Assembly: GCF_052425735.1 (NCBI RefSeq)
Contig: NC_135763.1
Coordinates: 14,384,001 to 14,448,000 of the forward strand
Reading direction: 5' to 3'
Length of the DNA: 64,000 nt
DNA from: Oculina patagonica
Lineage: Eukaryota
Shown: piece by piece, positions 5,211 through 64,000 of the stretch
Layout of the letters: each line of letters begins with the position of its first letter
How positions within the stretch are numbered: position 1 is the first letter of the stretch
Made by a program: the position numbers and the translations under genes
The notes under the pieces: model-generated
Databases searched by the model: none
Told to the model about the DNA's origin: nothing
Seen by the model: the letters and a program-made list of their open reading frames with translations, nothing else

Positions 5211-5295
5211 CTGTGGACGTAAGCGAGTGAAATACCCTATTCGATACACCACGAAGTTTCTACGTGTTCTAGGATACTATTTATTGCAGATAAAC

Positions 5296-6270
5296 ATGTA
5301 CCTCAACTATTCTATAAACTGCCAAGAAAAGCAAGTTATTACTCAAGAAAATAATTCTTGTTATCATTTTCCCGTATTTCTGGCTGAAAATGTTCCGCAA
5401 AAACTCATCGTGTCTAACTGTGTGATTAACATCCTGCTTTTGGTAACAGCAACCGTTGGAAACATTTTGGTTTTATCTGTAGTATGGAAGACGCCTTCTC
5501 TTCGCTCTCCATCGATTGTCTTACTCTGTGGTCTTGCAACAACTGATCTTGTTGTTGGCCTTGTCGTCCAGCCATTGTTTCTTTCCATGGAACTGATGCT
5601 ACTCCTCTCAAACTCGGCAGAGTATCATTGTGATTTGGGAAAAGCGTACATCGCCCTTTCCTATACAGTATGCAGTGCATCTTTGATGACAGTAACAGTC
5701 ATAATTCTAGATAGGTTATTAGCAATTCGGTATCATCTGAGGTATACCAGTATTGTAACTGTTCCACGAGTCATCTACATTATGGCTCTTATCTGGTTGG
5801 TAAGCGGATTTTTAGCAAGTCTAGTGCTTTGGAGTGGAAGAAATGTATTTACTGTTGTGATCGCCATAGGAGTTGCCATTTGTCTTTGCTTGTCTACGTA
5901 TGCTCATTTAAAAATACATGTCGTCGTTCGCCGACATCGACAACAAATACAAGCGCAAGCGGAAGCAGTACAGACTGGGAATGGTTTTAACGTGGCACGT
6001 TTCAAACGGACCGCTGCCAACGCTTTCGTAATTCACTGCTTTCTACTATTTTGCTATACTCCACTTTTCATAAACTTTTTGCTGAGTAGCAACAAAGACA
6101 TTATGCAATCAGCATTATATAAGAAAGCCAACAGAGCTATATCCTGGAAATTAACAGCCACTATAATCTTCCTGAACTCTTCTGTGAATCCTTTTATTTA
6201 CTGTTGGCGTCTTCGAGAAATGCGAGTGGCCGTGAAAAGAGCTTTAAAGGGGATCTTCTGTAGGTTGTGA
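5296..6270 (+). CDS. Class A (rhodopsin-like) GPCR, adenosine/melanocortin-receptor-like, 324 aa
   Basis: 7 hydrophobic segments; GN (TM1), LAxxD (TM2), LDRL (DRY position), NPFIY; ATG at 5296 just after a putative acceptor ttattgcag. Confidence 0.93.
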   Translation: MYLNYSINCQEKQVITQENNSCYHFPVFLAENVPQKLIVSNCVINILLLVTATVGNILVLSVVWKTPSLRSPSIVLLCGLATTDLVVGLVVQPLFLSMELMLLLSNSAEYHCDLGKAYIALSYTVCSASLMTVTVIILDRLLAIRYHLRYTSIVTVPRVIYIMALIWLVSGFLASLVLWSGRNVFTVVIAIGVAICLCLSTYAHLKIHVVVRRHRQQIQAQAEAVQTGNGFNVARFKRTAANAFVIHCFLLFCYTPLFINFLLSSNKDIMQSALYKKANRAISWKLTATIIFLNSSVNPFIYCWRLREMRVAVKRALKGIFCRL

Positions 6271-9843: not shown

Positions 9844-10556
9844 TACTTGCGTTTAGTCTAAATTCTAATAATTTCCCTCACCTGAAGGCTCCGGAAATTA
9901 AAAGAATTTTAACAAAACGCGCGTGAAATTATTACCTAAAATATTTGCAATTGTCACCATTTGCATGATTACCCAGACTTATATCATTGATTGTAATTAA
10001 AAATGAAATGCTTACACACAGCTTCTCATCATAAAGTATTGAAAAAACTAACCGTGCCTAAATCATAATTTCTTAGACACATAATATACATATATAATAC
10101 ACAGAATTAGAATGTATTTCAGTTGGTAAATGTTTAGGTCATCGCGTATTTAAAAATTTTTGGCCAAAAACGTACTTTAGGAACCGGCAGGCTTGAAGTA
10201 AGACTTCACGGCGGAACGTGCAAATTAACCGCTCGGCCAACTTGAAATATGGAAATCATGAGAGTAAAAACACAAAAAGCACCTGTCATGCCTGACACAA
10301 TTTTGACAAGTCCCGTTAAGCTTTGTGAAAGTTTACTTATCAGGTTTTTAGTTTAGTCCTTCGGGAGGTTTTGTGAACATTTCTGTGTAATCATTTCGTT
10401 TACTTGAAAAATCATTATTAAGCTGTGAACGAGAGTGAGTGTAACAGACTGGAAAACATATTCACACTATCATCCCGATCTTGGTTTACTTGTATTTCCA
10501 AGGGGAGGATCGACATGTGACATAAATGGTCTATAAACTGCCAAGAAGAGCAGGAG

Positions 10557-11498
10557 ATGAGTCAAGAAAATAATTCTTGCTACCGTTTCCCTGTATTTCT
10601 GACTGAAAATGTTGCGTATGGACTCATCGTGTTCAACTGTGTAACGAACGTTCTATTGTTGGTAACATCACTCATCGGGAACATTGTGGTTTTATCTTCA
10701 ATATGGAAGACGTCTTCTCTTCGCTCTCCTTCGATCATTTTGCTTTGTGGACTAGCGACAACAGATCTTGCTGTCTGTTTGGTCGTTCAACCGTTGTTTC
10801 TTTTGATAGAACTGATGCAACTCCCCCCAAGCTCGACAAAGTATCCCTGCGTTTTGGGAAAGGCATTCATCACTATGTCCTATTCAGTATGCGGTGCATC
10901 TTTAATGACTGTTACGGCCATAAGCCTGGATAGGGTATTGGCAATTTTGTATCACCTGAGATATGCCAGTATTGTGACTGTTCCACGAGTCATCTACGTT
11001 ATAACACTAAACTGGTCAGTGAGCGGATTTCTGGCAAGTCTGATACTGTGGAGTAGCAATAATGTGTTCCTTGTTGTCATGGCTGTAGCAGTTGCCATTT
11101 GTCTCTGCTTGTCTACCTATTCCCATGTAAAAATATATCTTGTTGTTCGTCACCATCAACAACAAATTCAAGCGCAAGCAGAGGCAGTACAGTCAGTACA
11201 AGCTGGGAATGGTTTTAACGTGGCACGTTTCAAAAGGACAGCTGTCAACACTTTCCTAGTTTACTACTTTTTACTTTTTTGCTATACTCCACTCTTTATT
11301 ACTTTGTTATTGACTGGTAAGGAAGTCATAATAAATGCGGCATCATCAAAGAAGACCCATATTGTTATAGCATGGAAATTAACGACAACAATAGTCTTCA
11401 TGAATTCTTCGGCGAATCCTTTTATCTATTGTTGGCGTATTCGAGAAATGCGAGTCGCCGTGAAAAGGACTTTGAAGGAGATTTTCTGTGCGGAGTAA
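10557..11498 (+). CDS. Class A GPCR paralog, 313 aa
   Basis: 7TM; SLDRV; NPFIY; high similarity to 5296..6270. Confidence 0.92.
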   Translation: MSQENNSCYRFPVFLTENVAYGLIVFNCVTNVLLLVTSLIGNIVVLSSIWKTSSLRSPSIILLCGLATTDLAVCLVVQPLFLLIELMQLPPSSTKYPCVLGKAFITMSYSVCGASLMTVTAISLDRVLAILYHLRYASIVTVPRVIYVITLNWSVSGFLASLILWSSNNVFLVVMAVAVAICLCLSTYSHVKIYLVVRHHQQQIQAQAEAVQSVQAGNGFNVARFKRTAVNTFLVYYFLLFCYTPLFITLLLTGKEVIINAASSKKTHIVIAWKLTTTIVFMNSSANPFIYCWRIREMRVAVKRTLKEIFCAE

Positions 11499-12024: not shown

Positions 12025-12091
12025 GGGCCTGTCCGGGAGTCGAACCCGGGACACACCCAAAGCGAGAATCATGCCACTAGACCAACAGGCC
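12025..12091 (-). pseudogene. tRNA-Pro(TGG) pseudogene
   Basis: Minus strand GGCCTGTTGGTCTAGTGGCATGATTCTCGCTTTGGGTGT-GTCCCGGGTTCGACTCCCGGACAGGCCC; 67 nt; 3' strand of the anticodon stem (CGAGA) deleted. Confidence 0.85.
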
Positions 12092-26479: not shown

Positions 26480-27463
26480 CTACCACCTATAGAAAATCTT
26501 CTTCAAAGTCCGTTTAACGGCCACTCGCATTTCTCGAAGACGCCAACAATAGATTAAAGGATTCACAGCGGAATTCATGAACACGATCGTGCTTGTCAAT
26601 TTCCAGGCTATAGCACTATCGGCGTTCTTCCATGATGCCGACTCGATCTTGTCCTCTTTGCTTGTCAACAGTAATGTTATGAACAGAGGAGTATAGCAAA
26701 GGAGGAGGAAGTAGTGGATGAGTAGAGCATTCACCGCTGTCCTTTTAAACCGTACTACGTTAAAGCCATTGCTCATATATGCTTGGACTGCCTCTCTTTG
26801 GACTTGAATTTGTTTTTGATGGCGGCGAACAACGCGATAAATGTTTACTTGGGCGGCTATTGACAAACTAAGGCAAATGCCCACTACAACAGCCATGACA
26901 ACAAGAAACACCTTATTTCCACTCCACAGCATTAGACTTGCCAGAAATCCGCTTGCCAAATAGTTAAAGGTCATAAGGTAGATGACTCGTTGAACGGTGA
27001 CGATGTCAACATATCTTAAATGAAATTGAAGCGCTAATAATCTATCTACGCTAATGGCTGTAACAGTGAACAAAGATACGCCACATACCGAATAGGACAC
27101 AATGTGAAATGCTTTGCCCAAACCACAATGATATTCGTCAAAGCTGTCGAGGAGTTGCCTCAGTTCTATGTAAAGATACAATGGTTGAACGACAAGACCA
27201 ACAGCAAGATCTGTTGTTGCGAGTCCACAGAGCAATACATTCGAAGGGGAACGCAGAGAAGGTGTTTTCCATACCACTGATATTACCAAGGCGTTTCCTA
27301 GAATCGCTGTTATTAGAAGCAGTATGTTAATAACACAGTTAAACAAGATGAGATTTTGTGGAACATTTTCAACCTGAAATATGGGAAGGCGAAAGCATGA
27401 GCTGTTGTCTTGAATTGCCTCTAGTTCCGCATGGCAGTTTGTAGAACAGTTATTATTAAGCAT
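26480..27463 (-). CDS. Class A GPCR paralog (start MLNNN by homology; upstream in-frame ATG at 27517)
   Basis: 7TM; SVDRL; NPLIY. Confidence 0.92.
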   Translation of the reverse strand: MLNNNCSTNCHAELEAIQDNSSCFRLPIFQVENVPQNLILFNCVINILLLITAILGNALVISVVWKTPSLRSPSNVLLCGLATTDLAVGLVVQPLYLYIELRQLLDSFDEYHCGLGKAFHIVSYSVCGVSLFTVTAISVDRLLALQFHLRYVDIVTVQRVIYLMTFNYLASGFLASLMLWSGNKVFLVVMAVVVGICLSLSIAAQVNIYRVVRRHQKQIQVQREAVQAYMSNGFNVVRFKRTAVNALLIHYFLLLCYTPLFITLLLTSKEDKIESASWKNADSAIAWKLTSTIVFMNSAVNPLIYCWRLREMRVAVKRTLKKIFYRW

Positions 27464-28537
27464 GATGATATCCGTAGTCCAATTTAAATCGTAAAAGCGG
27501 TAAAGTTCTTGTCGCATCAAAGGCGTCTCCTTTCGTCTCTTTCCTTAACCTCTGATTAGATTCAGTGTTTGTGAAGAATTAACCCCGTAAAACGATCTAG
27601 AATCGTGCACATGCATGTTTAAGCATTTTGAGAACGTCAAAGTTCATATTGGAGACCCAATTTTAGGTCTAATATCATTGATTCAGTTCACTCGCGCCGC
27701 CTCGATGTTTTGATGCATCCTATATACTGTAGCTATATATGGAATCATCTGGACTTGGAGACCTGGACTGCGAGACTTGTCTTGCACTTAAATTAACGCA
27801 GGCAACAAGTTCAAGTCAATGTTTTTTCGCTTTTGTGCAAACAATAGTGCGCAAAATTCAGAAAAATGTGAGCGCCAATATATAGAGCTTTCCTTTACTG
27901 GTTGAGAGAGGAAGTAAAATCCGACATGAACTAAAACAACAATTTCATTATTAAAACATAGGACATGACAATCACCAAACCCTTCCATTAAACTTAAAGA
28001 TACATAGATTGACAACATTTTTAACCTTGTTATACATTCAAAATTCTCCAAGCCATCGCCTCCAGTGAGCAAACTCATGTAAAGATCCTTAAAAAATTTC
28101 TCTCGTACAACATTTAAACTCCTTAAAGCGAAACATCACAAATTGTGTTTGAAAACATGAAACTAAGTCTAGTTGTTACCAAGTGAATACTCGAGCAATT
28201 TCTGGAAAATTTTTACAAACACGTCTGATACTATTCTCCAAGTATACTTGACTAAATGCAATTACCTATACAAATAAGCTAAGTGCTATTGTACTTTCTA
28301 TTAGATTTACTTAAGGGGTTTTTGTCTTATGCTCATCGACACAAGGAAGTCATCAACGTCTATTAATGCAAACCAAAGCGGATGAAGCATTTCATCCTCC
28401 CCCGTACAAATGCATAACCTGATACAATCCATATCCTCTTTAATTCACTCAAACAATACCCTGTAATTTTAATAATGTTTCCATGGAAGCAAAGCCTCTG
28501 CGATGGCTTTTACTATTGTCATCAATACAATCACAAC

Positions 28538-30134: not shown

Positions 30135-31190
30135 TTAACAAAATCTCAACCTACAGAAAATCGCTTTCAAAGTCTTTTTCATGGCGACCCGTATTTCTCG
30201 AAGACGCCAACAATAGATAAAAGGATTCACAGCGGAATTCATGAATACTATTGTGCTTGTCAATTTCCATGCTATAGCGCTATCGGCCTTCTTCCATGAT
30301 GCCGAATCAATCTTGTCTTCATTGCTTGTCAGCAGTAAAGTAATAAACAATGGAGTGTAGCAAAGGAGAAGGAAGTAGTGAATAAGAACAACGTTGACAG
30401 CTGTCCTTTTGAAACGTGACATGTTAAAATCATCACGCACTTGAACTGCGTCTCTCTGCGCTTGAATTTGTTGTTGATGGCGGCAAACAACGCGATAAAT
30501 TTTCACGTGGATGAACACCGACAAACAAAGGCAAATGCCCACTACAACAGCCATGACAACAAGAAACACAATTCCACTCCACAAGATAAGACTTGCCAGA
30601 AATCCGCATGCCAACCAGTTTAATGTCATAAGGTACATGACTCGTTGAACGGTGCTAATATTAACATATCTTAGATGATATTGAAGCGCTAATAACCTGT
30701 CTATACTGATGGCTGTCACAGTCAACAAAGATACACCGCATACTGTATAGGACACAACAATAAATGCTTTTCCTAAAGCACAATGATACTCTGCCGAGTC
30801 TTCGCGGAACTGCGTCAGTTCTATATGAAGAAACAAAGGCTGAACGACAAGACCAACTGCAAGATCTGATGTTGCCAGTCCACAGAGCAATACATTCGAA
30901 GGAGAACGCAGAGAAGGTGTCTTCCATACTATCGATATAACCAACAGATTTCCAACAATCGCTGTTATAAGAAACAAGAAGTTAATTGCGCAGTTAAACA
31001 AGATAAGATTTTGTGGAACATTTTCAACCTGAAATACGGGAAAGCGGAAGCACGAGCTGTTGTCCTGAATTATCCCCTGTTCTTCTTGGCAGTTTATAGA
31101 ACAGTTGTTAAGCATAATGATAACCGTATTCCAATTTAAATTATCGTTAAAAGTTCTGAAATTTGCCCAAGCATTTTTATCCTCCACCAT
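30135..31190 (-). CDS. Class A GPCR paralog, up to 351 aa
   Basis: 7TM; SIDRL; NPFIY. Confidence 0.92.
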   Translation of the reverse strand: MVEDKNAWANFRTFNDNLNWNTVIIMLNNCSINCQEEQGIIQDNSSCFRFPVFQVENVPQNLILFNCAINFLFLITAIVGNLLVISIVWKTPSLRSPSNVLLCGLATSDLAVGLVVQPLFLHIELTQFREDSAEYHCALGKAFIVVSYTVCGVSLLTVTAISIDRLLALQYHLRYVNISTVQRVMYLMTLNWLACGFLASLILWSGIVFLVVMAVVVGICLCLSVFIHVKIYRVVCRHQQQIQAQRDAVQVRDDFNMSRFKRTAVNVVLIHYFLLLCYTPLFITLLLTSNEDKIDSASWKKADSAIAWKLTSTIVFMNSAVNPFIYCWRLREIRVAMKKTLKAIFCRLRFC

Positions 31191-33056: not shown

Positions 33057-33998
33057 TTATGAGTTCTCTCCGTTTTCTTTACAACACAAGTTCCTTACGA
33101 TACCTCTTACACTTTCTCTAATTTCCTTTATCCTCCAACAGTAAAGCAAGGGATTCGCAAACGGAGAGGAAAACAGAACGCCCGTGCAAGCATTGAAGGC
33201 CGCTTTCGATGATTTAGTTCCGAATTCGTCCATAATGCTAATTACCAAAAAGCAGCACACGAAGGGAACATAACTCAGTAAAAATATTGAAAGAATATAC
33301 AAAATTGTGAATACAGATTTTCTGTATTTTTCGATGTCAATGGCGTTTTGATTTGTTTGCACTTGACTTTGGTGGTGACGTATAATTTGGAAAACTTTGA
33401 AATAGGCGAAGACAGTGATAAAAAAGCAAAGTGCTGCCCCTAAAATGAAGATGACAATAAATATACTGAAGGGCTCATTTGTATAATACCAGTTGTACAC
33501 GCGACCAGCGAAAAACGCAATCAGCAAAACTACAAACGTTATATAAATAACAACGACCCGACGAACTGTAAGAAGAGATCTTCGGCTCATATGCAGCCAT
33601 CTTTCGACAGCCATTATTGTCATATCGATGACCGTTAGAGAGGAAAAGTAGTATCCAACACTTTGTGTGATAACACCACCAATACAGAACATCTTATTGT
33701 TTCCAAATAGCCCCGCCAATCGGTACATAACGAAAACCGGTTGAACCATTAATCCGGTGCAAAAGTCGGTGAAGGCCAAACCAGCAAGAAGAACATAAGA
33801 TGGAGTCCTCAAGGACGGGTTTTTCCAAATTGCTGCCATAATCAAAGCGTTTCCCGCCACTGTCATCGGTGCTAGAAGTGAGGTGACGACACAGGTTGTA
33901 AGAGTCACCTGATAGTAAACTGAGGTGCTTTTACTGGCGTTTGGAAAAACTAGAAAGGAACACCAACTGTCCTGTAAGCGAGAGGAATTAAAGGCCAT
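33057..33998 (-). CDS. Class A GPCR, divergent subfamily, 313 aa
   Basis: 7TM; LAFTD; AVERW; ANPLLYCWR. Confidence 0.93.
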   Translation of the reverse strand: MAFNSSRLQDSWCSFLVFPNASKSTSVYYQVTLTTCVVTSLLAPMTVAGNALIMAAIWKNPSLRTPSYVLLAGLAFTDFCTGLMVQPVFVMYRLAGLFGNNKMFCIGGVITQSVGYYFSSLTVIDMTIMAVERWLHMSRRSLLTVRRVVVIYITFVVLLIAFFAGRVYNWYYTNEPFSIFIVIFILGAALCFFITVFAYFKVFQIIRHHQSQVQTNQNAIDIEKYRKSVFTILYILSIFLLSYVPFVCCFLVISIMDEFGTKSSKAAFNACTGVLFSSPFANPLLYCWRIKEIRESVRGIVRNLCCKENGENS

Positions 33999-35123
33999 TG
34001 CCGAGAGTTAATCTGAAACCCCGAACTGCTTCACTGAGAAGGAGGTGCACAGAGGACTTAGGCCTTTCGATTTTTATGTCCTTGCTAATTCTCTTATGCC
34101 CACTCTTTCCTTGCAATTCTGAGATTTCTGTATTGTGATATTTAATTTCTATGAAGTCTGAATACTTTAAATTCGGTGTGAGTCTGTATACCAACCCAAC
34201 TGAACTGTTTGGTGTTAAAAGTGTAACCTAGGTGAACTTAAAATCATAAAAACATCACAAATAGCCTGAAACAGCTTGCGGGTGCTTTATTTATTAAATT
34301 GCCTTTTAGTGAGCTCGTTTAATTATTTCGCATTCAATTGTTTCTCCAATGAAAGGGGTCCTTAACTCAGTAGGGGCAAATAGGTTTGTGATTTTCTTCC
34401 ATGGGAACCGGCTCTTTACAATTGCATTCATTTTTTCGATGAAAGGAAGAAGAGGCTTTCAGGTTAAGAAATGTAGAGTGACATGATATTTGTTTGCTCA
34501 CGTTCAAGCAGAAATTAATTCCGTTGAGAAAACTGATTGCTATTGGAAAAGAGCAAAATGGTAGAAAAATGACTCATTTGGGACACTAAAGGCTAAACAG
34601 TGAAATTAGTTTGGAAGCTCGTGGAAAAAACAAATATCATGAACCATTGTAACTCTTCAGGAATCACTACTTGTTTTAAATAAAATCTACATGCTATAAA
34701 AATCGATTATAATAACGGTGTCTCTGCAGGAGCCTGTATATGATAATATATATAAAATAACGTTGGACATCACTGCAAAAAGATATTTTCTTTGCAATTG
34801 GACAACAATGAATTGACAATTGGCATCTTTTTTTTTTTTTCAGTCCAAAACCGATCGAATTGCAAGAAAAACATAGTTTTGAAGTATCGAGAATTAAGAC
34901 AATGCTTCTTGTTAGCAGTTTTTCTGCTTGATTGTAAATGGAAATTGTTTCTCATAAGAAAGCTGCTATTGAAAAAGAACCGGATCTGAGAAAATCACCC
35001 CTTCTGGTCGCTCTAAAGGAAAAAAAACATCAAGAATTGTACCTTACAGGGATGACTTCTATTTTAATTAAAAGCTACATGATTAAAATTGGGGAACAAA
35101 AGTTACTCTCTGAAGATAAGACA

Positions 35124-55500: not shown

Positions 55501-55528
55501 TTTTATTTTTTTTTTTTGCTGAACCGTT

Positions 55529-55830
55529 AGTAGTAAGGACCGCTTAAGTTCGGATCTAGCCAATCACAGAGCAGCATTTCTGCGCATGCGTAGAGGGGGA
55601 AATCACGTGACTTGGGAGGGATGACGTCATAGGAGTCGGTCCCAGGGTGGTCCGAGTCTCGGTTCTAGGCCCCAACGGCCAAAAAGCGCTCGCCCCAGTC
55701 CCCCTCGGAAATTTTTTTTAAAAAGGGGCAAAAAATGGATGAAACGGGAAAAAATCACGTGACTCGGAGGCGATGACGTCACAGCAGTCGGTCCCAGTTC
55801 CCGAACGGTTAGAATGAACTTGGTCCCAGT
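55529..55830. promoter_or_regulatory. Viral terminus (probable TIR) with duplicated E-box + CRE module
   Basis: AGTAGT; agccaatca; tgcgcatgcg; aaatcacgtgact..gatgacgtca..agtcggtcccag at ~55600-55645 and ~55751-55797. Confidence 0.65.
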
Positions 55831-55947
55831 CCTCGCGCGGAAAAAACGACAAGACAAGAAAATAGGTGTAAAAACAGGTTTTTTTTAATAACAGGTTTTT
55901 TCTGTTAAGGTACAAGACACTAAAAAACGGTAACAAGTGGTCCTAAA

Positions 55948-56019
55948 GCCCCGGTAGTGTAACGGGTATCACTCCTGCCGCTGAGGTAGGCAATCGAGGT
56001 TCGAGTCCTCGCTGGGGAT
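55948..56019 (+). tRNA. tRNA-Gln(CUG)-like Pol III gene inside the Polinton terminal region; atypical anticodon loop
   Basis: Cloverleaf: acceptor GCCCCGG/CTGGGGA, D arm GTG..CAC, anticodon stem CCTGC/GTAGG with loop CG-CTG-AG, T arm CGAGG-TTCGAGT-CCTCG; A box TAGTGTAACGG; B box GGTTCGAGTCC. Confidence 0.8.
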
Positions 56020-56020
56020 A

Positions 56021-56029
56021 TTTTTTTTT
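56021..56029 (+). terminator. Pol III oligo-dT terminator
   Basis: T9 starting 2 nt after the tRNA-like 3' end. Confidence 0.75.
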
Positions 56030-56168
56030 CCTTGTGTCAATGTTCACTAAGCCCTAGTGGCCGCGCACCCTGGGAATGAACGTGTACAAAGTTAGCAAGA
56101 CCACCATCCTATAGATATGGTTCACAAAGTGCCATACTGTCCTTGTGGTATCTGGAACTCAATACTTT

Positions 56169-56323
56169 GCACTAAACGCATGCGCAGATGAGTCTACGCG
56201 ATACACTCACGATTGATAATTAGTTACCTCTCTTGTGAAACCACAAAGGTTGTCTCAGAAAGCGCCATGCCTTCCTTATGGTATGGTTCTTCCTGGCACT
56301 AAACGCATGCGCAGATGAGTCTA
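56169..56323. repeat. Perfect 29-bp direct repeat gcactaaacgcatgcgcagatgagtctac x2
   Basis: Copies start at ~56169 and ~56295; contain NRF1-like cgcatgcgca and AP-1-like tgagtc. Confidence 0.9.
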
Positions 56324-56518
56324 CATTGCTTTTTCTAGGTCGGCGATTCTGAAAAAACGCAGGCTTGTAAAGCTATTTTTTAAAAAATCACGTGAGAGAG
56401 GGGGGAAGGGGTATCCCCCTTTCTCGGGTGTACTGGGAACGAGTACGAGAGTTTTGTTTGTTTGCTCAAGTCGGTGATCGAATGCACATACGACAACATG
56501 TAAACGTTTAACCACGTC

Positions 56519-56524
56519 TTTATT
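56519..56524 (-). terminator. Putative polyadenylation signal AATAAA for the ATPase-to-PLA2 block
   Basis: 13 nt downstream of the last ORF stop. Confidence 0.65.
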
Positions 56525-56537
56525 GTGTTCAACAACA

Positions 56538-56903
56538 TTAAAGTTTCAACTTTTTCTTGGCTTGCATGATTCGTTTGACAATGCGTTCCGTCATGGTTTT
56601 ACTTCCAGGTAATTTGTTGATGGCTTTAATCATTTTCTCGTCGGCTTTCCACTTGTCCCTTAGATTCTTGGCGTGACTGTAATCGATGTCGTGCTGTTTG
56701 GCGATCTTGTCTAATCGATTGATGCCCGGGTCCCCGCGTTTCAATCGCTTTGCCAATTTGGTTCCGGGACCCATGTACTGATAACCGGGCCAGTGAAATT
56801 CGATTCCAGTCTTGCCGAGCCACTTCTGAATGTCGATCCCACGTCCGCGTTGTCGTCGCCGTGTCGTCTTTTTTTCAGTCCTCTTCTTCTTGGTCTTCGT
56901 CAT
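56538..56903 (-). CDS. Parvovirus VP1u-type phospholipase A2 (adintovirus PLA2X-like)
   Basis: PGYQYMGPG Ca-binding loop; LDxxAxxHDIDY catalytic motif; basic leader ending QRGRG. Confidence 0.9.
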   Translation of the reverse strand: MTKTKKKRTEKKTTRRRQRGRGIDIQKWLGKTGIEFHWPGYQYMGPGTKLAKRLKRGDPGINRLDKIAKQHDIDYSHAKNLRDKWKADEKMIKAINKLPGSKTMTERIVKRIMQAKKKLKL

Positions 56904-57474
56904 ACTCCAATTTTCGTCTCAACTTTTTGCCTTTGGCCCAATCTTCCCAACCGGGTAATGGTTTCAGTTTCTCGGCTTCCGTTTTTCGCACAGCTGGCTT
57001 TTTCCTCGTCTTTAGTTTCTCTTCTAAACTCTTGAATCTCTCTGCCAATGTCGGTTTGCCCGCAGGTGCCGTTTTTGCTTTCTTTGTCGCCTTCGGGGTG
57101 ACTGTGGGAGGTGATTTCTTGGCACTCCCTTTTATGAGTTGTTTCAACATGGTCTCCACGGGTCCCGTCACCAAACCTACATTCTCCAACTCCTCCTCCT
57201 CCTCCTCCGCTTCTTCGCCCGGCCGTCTGGCTGTTACTCCTCCCATGGGAAATTGACGTATCCGTTTGGTCAAACGAGCCCGTTCGCGAGCGAGAGGTTT
57301 CACTCGTGCCACGGCGATACCGTCGGGAACGGATTTATCTTTTAACAGCAAGTGACTTTCGGCTGCTATGCGAGCCGCTTTGTTCAACAATGCATTGTCC
57401 GTGATTTCGCCTTTGTAATATTGCACCAAACGATTCAAGTCTTTAGCGGGAACCATCACGACTTCCTCGGTCAT
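56875..57474 (-). CDS. Polinton protein of unknown function, 199 aa
   Basis: Intact ORF overlapping both neighbours; helical N-terminus, acidic run, Lys/Pro/Ala-rich C-terminus. Confidence 0.75.
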   Translation of the reverse strand: MTEEVVMVPAKDLNRLVQYYKGEITDNALLNKAARIAAESHLLLKDKSVPDGIAVARVKPLARERARLTKRIRQFPMGGVTARRPGEEAEEEEEELENVGLVTGPVETMLKQLIKGSAKKSPPTVTPKATKKAKTAPAGKPTLAERFKSLEEKLKTRKKPAVRKTEAEKLKPLPGWEDWAKGKKLRRKLEYDEDQEEED

Positions 57475-57805
57475 CTTTGAAGTATTCTTCCAACAAGCTT
57501 TCGTAACACCCTTGCCAGTAACGAACTTCCTCTTCTAACTTGTCTATGCGCCTTTTCAAGTCGCTTCTCGATGTACACTTGTCGCTACACTCCTTGCACA
57601 GTACTAGGGTCTTTCCTTCCGGAGTCTCTTGCCTCTCTCGAATGCAATCTTCGCACTCTGCGTCGTATTTTAAAGCCAAATAGTCATGATTGACGCGGGC
57701 GTAGGCTTTGTGCCAATGGTCTGCTCTTTTTTCCCACTCTGCTTCTCTGTCCGCCGATTCGCGTAACATTTTCATCATTGTCTGGAGGGTGTTTTGCAGA
57801 GACAT
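57443..57805 (-). CDS. Coiled-coil protein with central CxxC-x15-CxxC
   Basis: CEDC...CKEC between predicted helices; first ATG at 57805 (MSLQ). Confidence 0.7.
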   Translation of the reverse strand: MSLQNTLQTMMKMLRESADREAEWEKRADHWHKAYARVNHDYLALKYDAECEDCIRERQETPEGKTLVLCKECSDKCTSRSDLKRRIDKLEEEVRYWQGCYESLLEEYFKDDRGSRDGSR

Positions 57806-58110
57806 GCTTGGTAGATCTGTTGCAGTCCTTTCCAAAACCCGCTACCCTTCTGTGACAGGAGACCTTCTCGCCTTCTCTTCAACGAGTTTCTGCGCTTACC
57901 CAGTTCGCGCAAGACCTTCTTATATCGTCGCAGCTTGGCGGTGATCGGTGGACTGAGCGGAATGCGGTTCTTGAGCAAATTCAAGACCATCTCACTCACG
58001 GCGTTGATCTGATCGGCGTTGGCGTGCTGTAACATCTCTTCTCGCTTGAACCGATTGGCTTCTTTCAGAATGCTCTCCAAGAATGGACGCTGTCGACGTA
58101 ATCGATTCAT
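57775..58110 (-). CDS. Basic Polinton/adintovirus virion-core-like protein
   Basis: AxxDQINAVSEMVLNLLKNRIPL...LRRYKKVLREL...QKGSGF resembles the conserved Polinton QxG(G)F family; ATGA overlap at the start. Confidence 0.8.
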   Translation of the reverse strand: MNRLRRQRPFLESILKEANRFKREEMLQHANADQINAVSEMVLNLLKNRIPLSPPITAKLRRYKKVLRELGKRRNSLKRRREGLLSQKGSGFWKGLQQIYQACLCKTPSRQ

Positions 58111-58310
58111 ACTTCCCACGGGGCTGGACGTCGGTTGTAACTACCGGTGACGCCCTTTACCCCCATCCTCTTATAGCGTTTGTCCTTTCCCAATTTATAG
58201 CCCAACTTGCCGGCAAACTTGAGTATGTCCAATAAACCCTCTCCTCTCCACACGGGTCCTCTTTTAGGTTGTTTTCGGCTTCTCCTTACTACCTTTCTTC
58301 TTCGCACCAT
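58107..58310 (-). CDS. Small basic protein with amphipathic peptide
   Basis: Arg-rich leader, WRGEG, then LLDILKFAGKLGYKLGK. Confidence 0.75.
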   Translation of the reverse strand: MVRRRKVVRRSRKQPKRGPVWRGEGLLDILKFAGKLGYKLGKDKRYKRMGVKGVTGSYNRRPAPWEV

Positions 58311-58378
58311 CTTGTCACAGAATGCAGTCTGTTGTAACTACCGGTGACGCCCAATGTCCCCATCCTCTTATAGTGTTT

Positions 58379-58585
58379 TTATCTCTTTTTCTTTCGAGTG
58401 GCTGCATCCAAGGCTTTCTTCGCACCCCAACCTGCAGCACCCGATGCAGCACCCAAAGCGATTGCTTTTCCACCCGCGATCAAAGCTGGTATCAAGGCTG
58501 CTAAGGGTAAAATACCACCCTTCTGTCCTATTCTTCTCCTGCCAGCACGTCTCCGCCTTTGCGTCACACGTTTCTTTCTCCTCAT
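58379..58585 (-). CDS. Small basic protein with hydrophobic/amphipathic peptide
   Basis: Arg-rich leader, QKGG, then ILPLAALIPALIAGGKAIALGAASGAAGWGAKKAL. Confidence 0.8.
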   Translation of the reverse strand: MRRKKRVTQRRRRAGRRRIGQKGGILPLAALIPALIAGGKAIALGAASGAAGWGAKKALDAATRKKKR

Positions 58586-58589
58586 GGTC

Positions 58590-58811
58590 CTATCGTCGTC
58601 GCGGTCTACGTCTATAATGATTTACATTATCCATTATCCCTTTAAATCCTTGACTGGCCAATTTACCACCCAACGTGAAGAATGTGGGTGAAGGACCCGA
58701 GAGAAACATGCTGGCCCCCTCGGCTATCTTGTCCACCAAACGATGTTTACGTCTCGCGAGAGCCCCACCTCGCTGCCTCTTTCTTCTGGCCTTACGTTTC
58801 GTTCTTCCCAT
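58590..58811 (-). CDS. Small basic core-like protein
   Basis: Arg-rich leader, QRGG, Arg-rich tail. Confidence 0.75.
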   Translation of the reverse strand: MGRTKRKARRKRQRGGALARRKHRLVDKIAEGASMFLSGPSPTFFTLGGKLASQGFKGIMDNVNHYRRRPRRR

Positions 58812-58829
58812 CCTACCATAACTGTCACT

Positions 58830-59324
58830 TCAGACGGGGGTACCTTCGGATTTATCGTGTTGTCGTTCGTACGCTTGCACGTACTTGTCGGCCACGGGCG
58901 GCGTGAAATCGGTGATCGTGTCATCTAGAGTTTGCATCTTGATCAAGAATCCTTCTAGTTCGTCCATCGGAAGACCGCGCGCGTACGTTCTCAATTCGAT
59001 CAACGTCTTGTCGTAGGTGGTGTAGGCAAAACGACATACGTCCACTTTGAACGAATATTTCTTGAAATCGTTCCAGCCCTTGACGACAGTCCCAGCTGAA
59101 GTTAGGCATGCCACAATAACACTATTTTCCGTAAGGGAACCCGCAATGATACCCGCTGCCACGATGAATAAAGCCAAAGCGTTCAATGAAGCATGACACC
59201 ACTTAAAATGGTAAAACATTTGACGATGACACCACCACTTTTTGTGGTAAAAGGTATACAATCCGTCCAATCTGTGTAACAGGTCTGGATCCAAGTTCGT
59301 CTTTGACCCGTTTAGTAGGGACAT
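58830..59324 (-). CDS. Two-TM membrane protein, 164 aa
   Basis: Hydrophobic hairpin LNALALFIVAAGIIAGSL / SVIVACLTSAGTVV followed by a helical domain. Confidence 0.78.
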   Translation of the reverse strand: MSLLNGSKTNLDPDLLHRLDGLYTFYHKKWWCHRQMFYHFKWCHASLNALALFIVAAGIIAGSLTENSVIVACLTSAGTVVKGWNDFKKYSFKVDVCRFAYTTYDKTLIELRTYARGLPMDELEGFLIKMQTLDDTITDFTPPVADKYVQAYERQHDKSEGTPV

Positions 59325-59326
59325 CT

Positions 59327-59737
59327 TTAATGGCTCACTCTCGTCGAGGTACGACGAACGGTCGGTCGTCCCCCGTCTTTATAGGTCGTAGTGATGGTGT
59401 TTGTCGTGGTGATGCCTGCGATGCGACGTCCAGCCGCCACTTGACGTTGATCGTTGAACAGCATTTGCAATTGACGTTGCAGGTCGTCTTGATTCAATCG
59501 GTGTGGACCACCCGTTAGCGTTCCTTGACCTGCAGGTACGTTGGACCTCGAGGAAGCAGGAGTAGTGGATCTCAAAGTCCCCGTACCCACTGCAGGAGAC
59601 GGTAATTGATCCAAGTACCGTCTAAGGACTATGGGGTCGATTCGATCCAATGTCTGTTCCAATCCCCCTCGGTTGACGTTGACGATCGGAATGGCACTAG
59701 GACTGGTTCCTACTCCTGCTGGCGAATGTCTTGACAT
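59327..59737 (-). CDS. Hypothetical S/T/G-rich viral protein, 136 aa
   Basis: ATG-initiated; tiles between neighbours. Confidence 0.7.
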   Translation of the reverse strand: MSRHSPAGVGTSPSAIPIVNVNRGGLEQTLDRIDPIVLRRYLDQLPSPAVGTGTLRSTTPASSRSNVPAGQGTLTGGPHRLNQDDLQRQLQMLFNDQRQVAAGRRIAGITTTNTITTTYKDGGRPTVRRTSTRVSH

Positions 59738-59949
59738 GTCTTTCTAGCTCTGTCTTCTAATGTCTGGATCAATTCGCTGAAGTAAGTCTTGTTATATTCT
59801 CTCACGAATTTCCACATCTGTCGCTTTTCGGCCAAATGTAACACAGTTTGCATGGCGTCGTAGTCCATGTCCTCTTCTCTCATACGCTCGAAATGACGAC
59901 CGCACAGGTCCAAGAACACGAGCCACACGTGATCGTTACGTACGAACAT
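59710..59949 (-). CDS. Hypothetical viral protein, 79 aa
   Basis: ATG-initiated; overlaps both neighbours. Confidence 0.65.
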   Translation of the reverse strand: MFVRNDHVWLVFLDLCGRHFERMREEDMDYDAMQTVLHLAEKRQMWKFVREYNKTYFSELIQTLEDRARKTCQDIRQQE

Positions 59950-60601
59950 CTCGAACGAATCTGTAACATCTCATGCATCCCTCGTCTTTTAAGAGGTGGC
60001 TAAAAATCCGTCTGTCGTCGCCACTGGCAGGGTGTAGATCCAATACCATGTAACCAAAGGGTCTTTCCGTCGTCTTGGTGTAGACGTCCATCACATCTTG
60101 CCATCGGGAGGGAAACGCTTGTAACAGTAAATTCCTCATGCCCAATTGATCGCGAGGGTTCTTGAAAGCCACGATGTAATGCGCATTTCGAGAAATGCTC
60201 TTGGCGTATTTTCCCGGCGGAAACATGTCTTGACACAAGTACAGAACGGTGATGTTCCTGTGGTGGGAAAGTTTGGTGAACAGATCCAATACTCTCTTGT
60301 CGTTTCCTCCTTCTTCCATCAGATCGTCCAATACCATCACCCCTCCACGGGGAAACCATTTGGTCAAATCTACTTCTTCGGGAATCCCTTCGTGAAATTT
60401 CACGCCTCGCTTTTTCATGTTCGCGAAACCGTCTTGCCAAGCCCCAAAACAATAATGAATGGTCTCAGGGGGTGTACTAAACAACTCTTTTGAGTGATTC
60501 AAAAGTACCGACTCGGTAAAACAAGTCTTTCCGCAGCTAGAGGGGCCCACGATCAAAATGCTAGAGGGCATCCGAAAGCTAAAGGCTTCACCGCGCTCCA
60601 T
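59936..60601 (-). CDS. DNA-packaging ATPase (FtsK-HerA / A32-like)
   Basis: Walker A GPSSCGKT; Walker B VMVLDD; SHHRNITVLYLCQ; ISRNAHY. Start chosen at MERGEAF (60601). Confidence 0.93.
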   Translation of the reverse strand: MERGEAFSFRMPSSILIVGPSSCGKTCFTESVLLNHSKELFSTPPETIHYCFGAWQDGFANMKKRGVKFHEGIPEEVDLTKWFPRGGVMVLDDLMEEGGNDKRVLDLFTKLSHHRNITVLYLCQDMFPPGKYAKSISRNAHYIVAFKNPRDQLGMRNLLLQAFPSRWQDVMDVYTKTTERPFGYMVLDLHPASGDDRRIFSHLLKDEGCMRCYRFVRDVRT

Positions 60602-60713
60602 GGCGAAATGACATTCGTCAAAAAACGAGCAATGATATAAGCATGTTGCAGAAAAAAAGTCTGCAACGAACCTCGAGCGACAGACGACACACACCTTATT
60701 CATTACAACGTTT

Positions 60714-60719
60714 TTTATT
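60714..60719 (-). terminator. Putative polyadenylation signal AATAAA for the capsid/protease block
   Basis: 7 nt downstream of the protease stop. Confidence 0.65.
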
Positions 60720-60726
60720 TGTCATC

Positions 60727-61296
60727 TCACAACAACAAGTGTCTTACACCGCAGAGAGACGGTTCACAATCCTGATGGTATTCCATCTTACAAATTTTGT
60801 GCCACGACCTTTCCTTCGAGATCAATTGCTTCAACATTTGCCCAACTTTATGATCATTGTACACGTAATCATGTTTCTTGAATCTCGCTTCGAACTGACT
60901 CATGCTACGTCCTTCGGCCCTATCGATGAGATACATCAGCGCGTAATCGCCGCAGCTCTGACTGAACAACGATTGTAGACTCTGTCCGTTGCGCTCCACG
61001 TACTTCCAATGAGCGTCCAACCAATCTTGCAACGGTTGCGCCGTCTGGTACACCTTCAGGGGTAAGGCGTAACTGTCCAACACTTCGCACACGTTTCCAT
61101 TCGTCCACAGAGCGATCCAATGCCGACCGCGCATGTAGTGAGGATCGGTGTTGACGATGTACCCGCGGGCTTCCGTCTTGAATGGTTTTCGAGGTAATCG
61201 ATCGCAGGCCACTGTCCCGTAAAAGTAAGGTTTCAACCAAGGGTGATGTCTGGCCAACTGATCCAACTGCACGTTATTCAAAGTCACTTTCTCCAT
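60727..61296 (-). CDS. Adenain-like (clan CE) maturation cysteine protease
   Basis: IVNTDP..GRHW (His), VLDSY (Asp), LQSLFSQSCG (oxyanion Gln, catalytic Cys). Confidence 0.93.
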   Translation of the reverse strand: MEKVTLNNVQLDQLARHHPWLKPYFYGTVACDRLPRKPFKTEARGYIVNTDPHYMRGRHWIALWTNGNVCEVLDSYALPLKVYQTAQPLQDWLDAHWKYVERNGQSLQSLFSQSCGDYALMYLIDRAEGRSMSQFEARFKKHDYVYNDHKVGQMLKQLISKERSWHKICKMEYHQDCEPSLCGVRHLLL

Positions 61297-61298
61297 CA

Positions 61299-62702
61299 CT
61301 AACGCTGGTACACGTCGTACAACACGGCTTTGTTCTTGTCAATCTCCAAGAGATTCTCAAACTCTCCGTACACGATGATGGTCAAGTTCACAGCTGGGTT
61401 GGCTCCAAAGTTCAGCTCTATTAGTAGATTTCCGGCTTGCTTGGGGTTCATCCTGTAACTGTCCACGCATCCGTTGGCCACGTTGTCGAACACGAACAAC
61501 GTGCAATTCTTTCCTTGTCCCAAATCTTCACCTCTCACCATGTTTCCTTGCTGCTTGCACAGGCAACCGGTGGCTTGCAAGAAACGGTGGTACCCTCTGA
61601 GATCTTTGGTGCCATCGTTGTGGACCAACTCTAGCGTCTCGTAAGGATACTCTTCTCCTCCCACGAGTTGTTTTATGCTGCTCATTCCAAACTTCTGAAA
61701 ACAGAAGGGATCGTTGACCACGTTCCCGGTGAAGGCTGTGGACAGTACCATACCCACGATCACGCGGTTGGGAATTCTTCCTTGGAACAAGTTGGTGCAT
61801 TCGTACCGTCGTTGATCTCCCTGCATGTTGAAGGTCCGAATCTCGCTTCTCACGGTCGGGTAACTCACCACTTGACTCTTGGTGGTCATCTCATCCATCA
61901 GTCTCCTGTACGTCGTGGGATTGAGACGCACTTGACACAGGTACATTCGAACTTTGACTTCCTCGGCCGTCAACTTTCCTGCCAGACCCACTCCGTTCAA
62001 GAACACGTCGGGAGAATTGAAGTACATCTGTATTCCTATCTGCACTCTGGGTACCAACAACTTGCTCAGATGAAACACTTCGATGAGGGGTTTGAAACGC
62101 AACACGTGTCGCTTGCCTTCCGTGTAATTGGCTTGTTCTGCTTTAGAGTTCTTGAGAGCCTCCTTGTGATTGGCGGTCAGGGCTACATAGTCTGCGTGTC
62201 CAGCTCCAGCGTTGGCTGCAGTGTTCGTGTTATTGTCCGTCCACGTGGCTGGGAAATCGATATGATTGTACCAGCCTTGAGGTTTCAAGATGGTTTCTCC
62301 ATCACGTCTGTCGTAATTCAGCAACGTTTCCAAGAAGGCTCTGTAATGGTACGTGTCCGTCTGGGGACTGATGAGAGTACCGTTGAGACGCACGCTGATT
62401 TGCTTGAACAGAGAATGGGCTAGATTGTTGACGGGCCACAGCTTGTCGGCAGCTGCCACGTTCTCATCGTTGTCTTTCTTCAGTTGCAATTCTACCTCGA
62501 AGAAGCTACGGCTGAGATCGATGTAATCTTCTTGGGGGTCGATCTGAAACTCCACCGGATTGATGCCTGTGGTGTAGGTCTGAACGGGGACCATCCGATA
62601 CGACGAGACGCTGACGTCTGTCGGTGGTACGGCGAATAGATCCAATCGAGGATTGGCCTCGCGTCTCGACTGCGGGTAGGCGCTCGAGATGGTTTCGGTC
62701 AT
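61299..62702 (-). CDS. Major capsid protein (double jelly-roll, hexon-like), 467 aa
   Basis: LDLFAVPPT N-terminal motif, YIDLSRS, PVNNLAHSLFKQ, YHYRAFLETLLNY, GRIPNRVIVGMV typical of Polinton MCPs; ATG at 62702. Confidence 0.93.
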   Translation of the reverse strand: MTETISSAYPQSRREANPRLDLFAVPPTDVSVSSYRMVPVQTYTTGINPVEFQIDPQEDYIDLSRSFFEVELQLKKDNDENVAAADKLWPVNNLAHSLFKQISVRLNGTLISPQTDTYHYRAFLETLLNYDRRDGETILKPQGWYNHIDFPATWTDNNTNTAANAGAGHADYVALTANHKEALKNSKAEQANYTEGKRHVLRFKPLIEVFHLSKLLVPRVQIGIQMYFNSPDVFLNGVGLAGKLTAEEVKVRMYLCQVRLNPTTYRRLMDEMTTKSQVVSYPTVRSEIRTFNMQGDQRRYECTNLFQGRIPNRVIVGMVLSTAFTGNVVNDPFCFQKFGMSSIKQLVGGEEYPYETLELVHNDGTKDLRGYHRFLQATGCLCKQQGNMVRGEDLGQGKNCTLFVFDNVANGCVDSYRMNPKQAGNLLIELNFGANPAVNLTIIVYGEFENLLEIDKNKAVLYDVYQR

Positions 62703-62935
62703 CGTATTCTCTTCCTTCTTCCACTGCGCTTCCGTAAGGTCTGTATCCAATCGTAGCCAGGAGGCTTTCTGAGCTCGGGACCTATCCACCCGCCCTTTTG
62801 TACTTTTCGTCGTCGCCTCTTTTGTCCCAACAAGGCCTGGTTCAAAAGTGCCAGTGAGAATCCTTCTCCCCGCTGTCTGACGGGGGCGCGTTTGGATCGG
62901 ACCAGTCTGGACGAGCGCGAGTAAACGGGATTCAT
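62699..62935 (-). CDS. Small Arg-rich core-like protein
   Basis: QRGEG and QKGG motifs; ATGA overlaps at both ends. Confidence 0.78.
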   Translation of the reverse strand: MNPVYSRSSRLVRSKRAPVRQRGEGFSLALLNQALLGQKRRRRKVQKGGWIGPELRKPPGYDWIQTLRKRSGRRKRIR

Positions 62936-63189
62936 TTTTCGGCAAAGATGTCGTTCAGTTTTCTCTTGACGTTTCGTTCTATGACGTTTTTCAGTTTGCG
63001 TTTCACGACTCGTTTAGGACCACTCTTGGCTCCTTGACCCGCTTTACGAATGCGGTCCGCGACGCCGCGCCCACTCTTAAATCCTCTCACGGCTCCACCC
63101 AGAGACTCTCTCACGATGTCGGCCAAAAATCCGTTCCCCTCTTGAGGTGGAGGATCCGGTGTGAAACGCGTCAGGGCACCGCCTCTCAT
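62932..63189 (-). CDS. Small basic protein with amphipathic helix
   Basis: MRGG; QEGNG-FLADIVRESLGGAVRGF; ATGA overlaps at both ends. Confidence 0.8.
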   Translation of the reverse strand: MRGGALTRFTPDPPPQEGNGFLADIVRESLGGAVRGFKSGRGVADRIRKAGQGAKSGPKRVVKRKLKNVIERNVKRKLNDIFAEK

Positions 63190-64000
63190 GTTCGCTTGAT
63201 ATGTAAGGTCACGATCGTGTTGCCTTCGCCAAAATCCACCAGTTTACCTGTAGTCTCGCTCACTTGCGTTTCAATAATGTCCACAATCTGGTTGCGGAGT
63301 GGAATATATTGTATGTGGAGAGGTTCAAAGTACTTGATACCTTTTCCTTCACGTTGAAAGTGAATTTCCCGCAACAGATCCGTGACTTGATTTCCCACAA
63401 CGGAACTACCACCCACGTCTGAGTAAACGAAAAGCGTACGCGATGCATCTCCAATCACTTTTTGGAAGGCTCTGTTGAGTTTCACAAAGCGCCAGTTACA
63501 ATAGCAACTCAAGAAAAGCTGTCCATTCTCAACAACCCAGAAATTTTTCTTGCCCTCTCCAAAATCATCCACGTCTATGGGATCGGGTATCGTAGCGTGG
63601 TGGCATTCCGGCTTCAGGTTCGGCCCGAGAAACACGTTTTCTTTCTCGTTCTTTTTTACCCATCCCATGTCAAAGGCCAAATCCTCGTTGAAAGACATGT
63701 AGTATGGGACGCCTTCAGTTTTCACTTCCGAGACGTCCAAGTTCGAGTTGTCGAGGACTAGCTCTTCACCTTCCCACTTGAAAGTATATTCCCACTCCTT
63801 TCCATTATCTGGCGACTTGGTCAAGTCTCCCACGATACGCTTGTATTCTTTGACTTGATCGAACTTGAAGACCAGGGCTTTCATGAAACTGAGGCCATCC
63901 ACGATGTTGTCGTCATATAGAATGTCCTGGAACGTCAGATCGGTGGTCACCGACTTGCTTTGCACGCGACCCTCCTTGTCTTTGCGCTTGAGCATCCACT
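63186..64000 (-). CDS. Minor capsid protein (penton-like), 5' end probably beyond the window
   Basis: C-terminal LFVYSDV..SVVGNQVTDLLR..YFEPLHIQYIPL..G..VDFGEG.TIVTLH typical of Polinton minor capsid proteins; frame open to the window edge. Confidence 0.85.
   Translation of the reverse strand, partial: WMLKRKDKEGRVQSKSVTTDLTFQDILYDDNIVDGLSFMKALVFKFDQVKEYKRIVGDLTKSPDNGKEWEYTFKWEGEELVLDNSNLDVSEVKTEGVPYYMSFNEDLAFDMGWVKKNEKENVFLGPNLKPECHHATIPDPIDVDDFGEGKKNFWVVENGQLFLSCYCNWRFVKLNRAFQKVIGDASRTLFVYSDVGGSSVVGNQVTDLLREIHFQREGKGIKYFEPLHIQYIPLRNQIVDIIETQVSETTGKLVDFGEGNTIVTLHIKRT

Follow-up and report, generated by a model that had tools for sequence, protein, structure and literature searches.

The window analysed here, a 64,000-nucleotide stretch of the genome of the coral Oculina patagonica (assembly GCF_052425735.1, contig NC_135763.1, positions 14,384,001 to 14,448,000), carries at its right-hand end the left 8.5 kb of a 20,174-bp element, of which the remaining 11.7 kb lie past the window end in neighbouring stretches (L011 and L012 in Table 1). 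With very little room for doubt, the element is a complete and young endogenous polintovirus (an adintovirus, Eupolintoviridae-type) that was inserted by its own integrase. A preliminary description of the window had proposed a recently inserted Polinton whose terminus starts with AGTAGT, with 15 co-oriented open reading frames (ORFs) and hardly any spacers, no lesions, and intact catalytic motifs in the protease, ATPase and PLA2 genes, and had suggested a search beyond the window for a protein-primed polymerase (pPolB), an integrase and the second terminus, as well as structure prediction for the major capsid protein. These proposals were borne out. The terminus begins exactly at position 55529, and the inverted termini, of about 660 bp, align over 669 columns with one substitution and one 8-nt gap, as expected of a recent insertion; the right terminus, inverted, ends CTTACTACT, and the target duplication ACCGTT is perfect on both flanks. 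The host site is a high-copy repeat, and because four of four paralogous repeat copies show an empty site with the flanks joined over a single ACCGTT, the insertion is a clean integrase product; mis-assembly at the junctions is unlikely given the perfect duplication and these empty sites. Host DNA has a G+C fraction of about 0.37, and from 55 kb onward this increases to 0.44-0.52. Sequencing runs labelled coral metagenome contain the DNA, in keeping with a stony-coral host; of 24 listed runs, 20, drawn from 9 studies, one perhaps the source, contain 63-77% of its words under four coded organism labels in addition to coral metagenome, and labels of this coded kind give no evidence of spread between species. 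No RNA run is among the listed holders, which has no bearing on expression. The left terminal repeat contains motifs that we take to be a CCAAT box (55560), an NRF1-like site (55581) and two pairs of an E-box and a CRE (55604/55622 and 55756/55774). The size, terminal repeats and target duplication of the element all fall within the ranges that define Polintons in the available part of PMC10748475 (13-25 kb, 100-1500 bp and 5-8 bp, respectively).

The window contains 15 complete minus-strand ORFs of the element (56538-63189), and a sixteenth that leaves the window, separated by spacers of -32 to +68 bp, so that 98.4% of the region 56538-64000 is coding; every hallmark gene is open. Regular expressions for the usual catalytic motifs of PLA2, ATPase, protease, integrase and polymerase matched all five proteins. 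The Pfam matches of the ATPase and protease are below cut-off; gene order is conserved in relatives. The true start of the ATPase may be its second methionine, giving 221 amino acids (aa). The six small ORFs at 56875..58811 are probably virion core proteins, judging from their sequences, and four of them (199, 111, 68 and 73 aa) recur in relatives. The 343-aa ORF that crosses the window end, which has no Pfam or NCBIfam match, is a probable minor capsid protein by its size, position and conservation. Beyond the window, a 1288-aa pPolB, an integrase with a chromodomain and the inverted terminus were all found. Pfam returned no OTU domain on the N-terminal pieces of the polymerase (in the available part of PMC8502044, OTU was detected by another method, predicted structural similarity) and no match for a VSR-like insert in the polymerase that was hinted at by eye. 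The Polinton features looked for, namely pPolB, rve integrase, double-jelly-roll capsid, ATPase, protease and termini, are all present.

Table 1. Features of the O. patagonica polintovirus; those past the window end are listed in order from the window end toward the right terminus
Feature	Position	Strand	Remarks
Left target-site duplication copy	55523..55528	+	6 bp, ACCGTT, within high-copy host repeat
Left terminal inverted repeat	55529..56197	+	begins AGTAGT
tRNA-like gene	55948..56019	+	in left terminal repeat, inward-pointing; A and B boxes, cloverleaf, oligo-T directly behind
PLA2 domain protein, parvovirus-type, 121 aa	56538..56903	-	basic N-terminus; PF08398 6.3e-12; motifs
Six small ORFs (199, 120, 111, 67, 68, 73 aa)	56875..58811	-	last three Arg/Lys-rich
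SLATT-like protein, 164 aa	58830..59324	-	two transmembrane segments; PF18181 E 3e-4, below cut-off; Atlas neighbours SLATT-like 0.92-0.96
Two ORFs (136 and 79 aa)	59327..59949	-	kept in relatives
Packaging ATPase, A32/FtsK-like	59936..60703	-	Walker A and B present; Pox_A32 Pfam match weak, E 0.07
Adenain-like maturation protease, 189 aa	60727..61296	-	His/Asp/Cys motifs; Peptidase_C5 weak, E 0.013; weak PDB match to viral cysteine protease, E 0.32
Major capsid protein, double jelly roll, 467 aa	61299..62702	-	fold model and Foldseek
Two small basic ORFs (78 and 85 aa)	62699..63189	-	
Putative minor capsid protein (penton), C-terminal part	63186..64000	-	whole 343 aa, L011:1186-2217; start past window end
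rve integrase with chromodomain, 359 aa	L011:2214-3293	-	PF00665 3.6e-13, PF00385
ORFs of 103, 256 and 91 aa	after integrase	-	
GRF zinc-finger protein, 302 aa	L011:4863-5771	+	PF06839
ORF, 173 aa	L011:5837-6358	+	
Spacer, 2.5 kb, ~209-bp tandem repeats	between 173-aa ORF and polymerase		similarity to copies with other polymerases ends here
Protein-primed polymerase (pPolB), 1288 aa	L012:878-4744	+	open; PF03175 1.5e-47; exonuclease and polymerase motifs
Right terminal repeat	L012:5042-5702		holds second tRNA-like gene
Second tRNA-like gene	L012:5211-5284	-	in right terminal repeat
Right target duplication	L012:5703-5708		same 6 bp as left

The preliminary description had implied a lone insertion and had overlooked both the tRNA-like gene in the termini and polymerase swapping; the element proved instead to belong to a family of near-identical copies. 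A search of the genome with the capsid protein gave 96 matches, of which 27 are full-length, open, without stops and 99-100% identical. Paired AGTAGT termini bound 30 elements, 28 of them with a perfect 6-bp duplication and two with one mismatch, and 28 of the 30 constitute the near-identical family (these counts exclude U2, F9, G2, G3 and G4, whose ends were not both found in the fetched stretches, U3-U5, from a stretch without family genes, and one capsid match on contig C1263). Among 17 other copies, each covered by three overlapping stretches, the major capsid gene is open in 15, the minor capsid gene in 16, the protease gene in 17, the ATPase gene in 15 and the integrase gene in 16. The ratio of nonsynonymous to synonymous differences (pN/pS) from the window copy is 0.10-0.35 in all 13 of 13 genes, at synonymous distances of 0.02-0.16, and therefore the copies diverged under selection before or between insertions. 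This pattern of sequence divergence supports recent replication of the family, which may have taken place on free linear DNA outside the chromosomes, primed by protein and proceeding by strand displacement. In the terminus, bases 7-30 (window 55535-55558) differ among almost all copies, with the two ends of any one copy in agreement, and a CCAAT box is found at a nearly fixed distance in most copies.

The predicted structure of the major capsid protein (mean pLDDT, a predicted score on the local distance difference test, 84) is a double jelly roll, for which the best Foldseek match was PBCV-1 Vp54 (E 1e-16), with iridovirus, mavirus and Sputnik capsids also matched; a sequence search of PDB with the capsid alignment gave no matches, whereas the fold search did. 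The two capsid genes have between-copy pN/pS values of 0.12 (major) and 0.11 (minor), and relatives at 52-75% capsid identity retain the gene order of the virion block. From these sequence features the element may be virion-competent, and the family probably passes through a particle stage, with which purifying selection on the capsid genes fits without proving it. The alternative is that the family spreads only within the genome as a self-synthesizing transposon, its capsid genes being intact merely because of a recent burst. Such an account is in keeping with a synonymous divergence of just 1-4% in the capsid gene and with the finding of no relative in protein scans or a pattern scan of IMG/VR; the low pN/pS of both capsid genes and the retained order of the virion block run counter to it, as do transcripts of capsid and ATPase genes reported from another coral (available part of PMC11131425), and we consider it unlikely.

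The polymerases of the family, in a quick version of the polymerase tree, fall into six groups with mutual identities of 45-78%: the window type (94-98% alike), F6 (73%), F2/F3 (67%), F1/F12/F7 (66%), F4/F13 (65%) and E4/U1/F9/F5 (45%). Across 21 copies, DNA identity is at least 95% in the protease gene and at least 98% in the 111-aa ORF, and descends to 88% in the PLA2 gene and 85% in the 164-aa gene. Copies with other polymerases cease to resemble the window element within the repeat-rich spacer that precedes the polymerase gene. F4 and G2 have polymerases that agree at the 99% level, and at the DNA level the two match at 97% over 3.4 kb; the G2 capsid is only 53% identical to that of the family, and by these identities G2 is likely to represent a donor lineage resident in the same genome. 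The tips of the termini follow the polymerase: with polymerase pieces shorter than 480 aa left out, all 20 of the 20 copies whose polymerase group has another member find their nearest tip (nt 7-24) within that group. In Mantel tests, rho is 0.67 when tips are compared with polymerases and -0.10 to 0.19 when they are compared with four virion-side genes. In one copy, E1, the two termini are unlike and have only their outer 257 columns in common, with a single perfect duplication around both, and several termini are enlarged to 2.1-3.1 kb.

Module swapping with matched termini among the copies is very likely on this evidence. Co-resident lineages would recombine in the spacer ahead of the polymerase gene, the incoming polymerase would bring its neighbouring terminus along, and the opposite terminus would then be copied from the new one, so that tip and polymerase would remain matched while the virion genes stayed nearly clonal. 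The end-to-end copying of a terminus has a precedent in the panhandle replication of adenoviruses. Two points tell against the proposal: polymerase type correlates with the 164-aa gene too (rho 0.43), and at one of the two ends the tip adjoins the polymerase, an arrangement in which linkage by itself accounts for part of the correlation. Only the matching far end needs more, and a far tip that matches the polymerase requires end-to-end copying. In E7, E12, E13, E14 and E15 the polymerase is cut to 155-166 codons at a common junction; counted from the start of the stub, at least the first 760 bases are 92-99% identical, and these five copies occupy five loci with three terminus types. Probably a single polymerase deletion, to judge from the shared junction, was spread through the five copies by replication in trans, the polymerase-less copies being presumably replicated by polymerases of other copies.

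The tRNA-like gene of the left terminus was the only tRNA found in the window by ARAGORN, as tRNA-Gln(ctg) at 55947-56020, and scores 36 bits against Rfam RF00005 (cut-off 29), tRNA being the sole Rfam family returned; a second terminal copy sits in the right terminus. Its anticodon loop is abnormal, with G at position 33 and CTG at positions 34-36. Canonical anticodon loops have U33, which is absent from all three variants present in the genome, A (CTG, G33), B (CTA, A33) and C (CTG, G33), each with a purine at this position. The gene is present in 17 of the 28 bounded family copies. Amid unrelated flanks, variants A and B have 61 of 72 nt in common, and four of four changed stem pairs keep or gain pairing; the 12 copies of variant A have 0/72 variable sites, against 5/72 and 4/72 in the flanks. 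In an alignment of nine members, 89.9% of cloverleaf cells are paired and two-sided changes occur in 13 of 21 pairs, far above slid controls; the anticodons differ among the members. A tRNA-derived host short interspersed nuclear element (SINE) was rejected as the identity of the gene: no dispersed copies were found outside element ends, since 34 of 34 matches to a pattern scan of the genome for the three variants lie at element ends and 33 of 33 matches to a DNA search coincide with terminal-repeat matches. Nor was an origin from host tRNA-Trp borne out (36 of 74 positions shared with the host Trp gene, 44 of 73 with a virus-side Trp gene). Terminus type B (L048, L052, L058, L015) carries an extra PLA2 gene (133 aa, 82% identical), which brings the number of PLA2 genes in copies with this terminus to two or three. 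On the minus strand of the window, ARAGORN missed a degenerate tRNA-like sequence of the host (12025-12091; 44 bits with model R1).

Eighty related metagenome loci were examined for tRNA genes with ARAGORN at default settings, which were used because a relaxed threshold of 85 gave mostly noise; 21 tRNA genes were found in 13 loci and none in three shuffles, and Rfam confirmed 20 of 20 calls in 12 of the 13 loci. In seven related loci the tRNA gene is found downstream of the protease gene at a distance of 35-104 bp, deep within the element, and element F10 of the O. patagonica genome has its tRNA-like gene within the virion gene block. Six related loci have tRNA genes in terminal arms, two of which are placed within a terminus. 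Clusters of two to four canonical-looking tRNA genes (His, Trp, Met and Leu, plus a Trp-like body with a TGA anticodon) occupy non-coding arms at L075:2127-2684, L114:668-1019, L115:127-405 and L127:11773-11942, where boundaries were not fixed. The tRNA-like genes at L080:16237-16310 and L081:155-228, in a terminus or terminal repeat, have a TCA anticodon and U33, with no UGA recoding seen in the genes of these two loci. A match to the histone 3' UTR stem-loop (RF00032, 38.7 bits) is located at L115:2367-2413, in or beside a related element.

The tRNA-like gene may be an accessory RNA polymerase III (Pol III) unit descended from virus-carried tRNA genes, the product of which would be a short, non-decoding tRNA mimic acting on host translation control or tRNA-directed antiviral defence. 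This reading is advanced tentatively, as one on which opinion could be almost evenly divided; it is favoured because structural conservation extends past the promoter boxes, the loop departs from the canonical form, and related genes are found at internal positions. As context rather than proof, the host genome has five matches to the Schlafen AlbA_2 domain, and loop-altered phage tRNAs have been proposed to counter anticodon nucleases (available part of PMC10264068). A number of considerations weigh against a mimic. CTG is retained at the anticodon position in two of three variants, leaving some decoding role possible; the 11 bounded family copies that lack the gene are still cleanly inserted, so it is dispensable; the copies of variant A share ancestry, which makes 0/72 variable sites modest evidence; the nine-member alignment mixes real and degenerate tRNAs picked from tRNA-finder matches, a choice that favours pairing; and the element boundary is not fixed for four of the six metagenome loci with terminal clusters.

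tRNA genes act as heterochromatin barriers in yeast and mammals, and the gene could accordingly have a role as DNA, a TFIIIC-binding barrier at both ends that holds off heterochromatin spreading over the provirus or the free genome. Its presence at both boundaries, the concentration of invariant columns across variants at A-box and B-box positions, and the abnormal and variable anticodon loop are all compatible with such a barrier. However, the acceptor and T stems change on both sides and stay paired, which a pure B-box barrier does not need, and in the seven related loci and F10 such genes are inside the virion gene block; we regard the barrier as a doubtful explanation.

A working tRNA that served codon compensation, stood in for cleaved host tRNAs or, in the CTA and TCA variants, suppressed stops seems distinctly improbable. 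Relatives do bear canonical-looking His, Trp, Met, Leu and Arg tRNAs (42-71 bits), stop-reading anticodons occur in three lineages (CTA in terminus type B, TCA in L080 and L081), and the tRNAs of protist polinton-like viruses have been interpreted as serving codon compensation (available part of PMC12220804). The coral gene, on the other hand, scores only 36 bits and has purine 33 in all three variants, the element prefers CAA over CAG (141 vs 88), the CTA-bearing copies have no in-frame stop among the matches listed, and the stops in related loci are mixed (TGA 90, TAA 74, TAG 53). Stop-codon recoding by suppressor-like tRNAs was set aside in particular, there being no in-frame TAG in the CTA-bearing copies among the matches listed and the stops in the 80 related loci being mixed nonsense lesions. 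It is equally improbable that the gene is carried along as a neutral passenger, having been captured as a tRNA or as the head of a SINE and homogenised by terminal copying: although the gene is absent from 11 of 28 copies and its flanks are also very similar (about 1% substitutions), there is no host copy outside element ends, an island of similarity with pair-preserving changes lies between unrelated termini, and fixed positions recur across distant lineages.

A broader proposition, that coral polintoviruses repeatedly converted captured tRNA genes to Pol III mimics whose altered loops blunt host defences that cleave or sense tRNAs, is speculative and rather unlikely. If it were true, phage anti-defence tRNAs would have a counterpart in an animal DNA virus, and a route from tRNA to VA-like RNA would become visible in an adenovirus relative, carried on termini exchanged with the polymerase among actively co-replicating viruses. 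The explanation as a whole, comprising a young polintovirus family, module swapping with matched termini, copying in trans and a tRNA mimic, is judged probable.

Two further copies of the family have unusual structures. The 32-kb copy at C1187:335378-367635 (L185, L186, L161, L162), with a perfect target duplication, has a second, distant polinton within it (integrase 45%, polymerase 35%) that carries a gene for a 312-aa EF-Tu-family translation GTPase (PF00009 4.7e-36); a polymerase stub and the third of the tRNA-like variants are present in this 32-kb copy as well. The copy at C5:16195977-16214243 (L042-L044), likewise with a perfect target duplication, is palindromic and without polymerase, integrase and minor capsid genes; the same insertion of a reverse transcriptase of a long interspersed nuclear element (LINE) is found in both arms, which are 98.8-99.9% identical. 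Its structure suggests snap-back copying of a template that bore a LINE, though it may be an artefact of assembly. Many contigs of the genome also carry capsid-like genes of a further, distant family, with 23-27% identity and 422-464 aa in their open frames, along with several lineages at 28-40%. Elsewhere in the window is a cluster of intronless ORFs (5206-6270, 10521-11498, 26480-27544, 30135-31190 and 33057-34007), presumably of the rhodopsin type of G-protein-coupled receptors, with more in L012 past the right end of the element, and exons resembling those of short-chain dehydrogenases are found near 35.8 and 40.1 kb.

The adenovirus virus-associated (VA) RNA, the gammaherpesvirus tRNA-microRNA-encoded RNAs (TMERs) and loop-altered phage tRNAs are Pol III transcripts or tRNA-shaped RNAs that act against host translation defence, and the coral tRNA-like gene is comparable to them by functional analogy only. 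It differs from the TMERs in that oligo-T abuts the cloverleaf, with no room for microRNA hairpins. As a short and specific marker for viral Pol III activity, it offers a testable lead on coral antiviral defence. The bare finding of an intact coral polintovirus is ordinary; the questions touched here are whether animal polintons are real viruses and how their replication modules are exchanged. On the latter, this genome contains a young swarm in which the steps can be seen: donor and recipient lineages coexist, one copy has ends that do not match, some termini are expanded and one lineage is without polymerase. The family also offers a natural test of the terminal bases that a protein-primed polymerase requires.

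The element resembles the adintoviruses (Eupolintoviridae) as set out in the available part of PMC8502044, sharing with them a PF03175-type pPolB, rve integrase, adenain, FtsK-type ATPase, hexon, probable penton, PLA2 and inverted termini, and a SLATT label stands beside the Stylophora map in the supplement of that paper, as in the 164-aa gene here. By description only, it fits the Alpha type (Alphadintovirus), with an archetypal PF03175 polymerase and a PLA2-bearing virion module of the Mayetiola class. tRNA genes are flagged in PMC8502044, as far as its available part extends, solely in a figure of MELD viruses with other replicases, unlike the PF03175 polymerase of the element; the word tRNA has no occurrences in the available part of its supplement text, outside which the figure flags lie. 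The polintoviruses described from stony corals (PMC11131425) are similar to the family in having many endogenous copies per genome, terminal repeats and hallmark genes, their transcription in Stylophora being a result of that study. The main text of PMC11131425, as distinct from its supplements, has no occurrences of tRNA, pPolB, mosaic or target site, and tRNA-like termini, polymerase swaps and polymerase-less lineages were not encountered in it. A literature search found no paper on tRNA-like genes in the termini of animal polintons, an earlier mention being possible in supplements, figures or subscription papers.

Nematode Polintons (available part of PMC10748475) are like the coral family in that pPolB1 and pPolB2 replace one another while other core genes stay similar; they have two polymerase classes and highly conserved termini, whereas in O. 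patagonica six polymerase lineages are found in one genome, the tips follow the polymerase and the likely donor, G2, is resident. Re-association of replication and morphogenesis modules is likewise described for Polisuviricotina (bioRxiv 10.64898/2026.10.13.758929), where recent turnover is described as rare, on the basis of few contigs; the available part of the preprint mentions neither coral nor tRNA. Protist polinton-like viruses and virophages (PMC12220804) share with the element the presence of tRNA genes in integrating DNA viruses of about 20 kb, with 558 hits in 8300 genomes, but these are mainly from protist hosts and are read as codon compensation, and the relevant section of the paper, unlike the coral family, has no location in terminal repeats and no abnormal anticodon loops. 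Coral polintoviruses, polymerase swaps, and tRNAs in protist polinton-like viruses were thus already known, and what is added here is a terminal tRNA-like gene and, within one genome, a swarm that has six polymerases and ends that match them.

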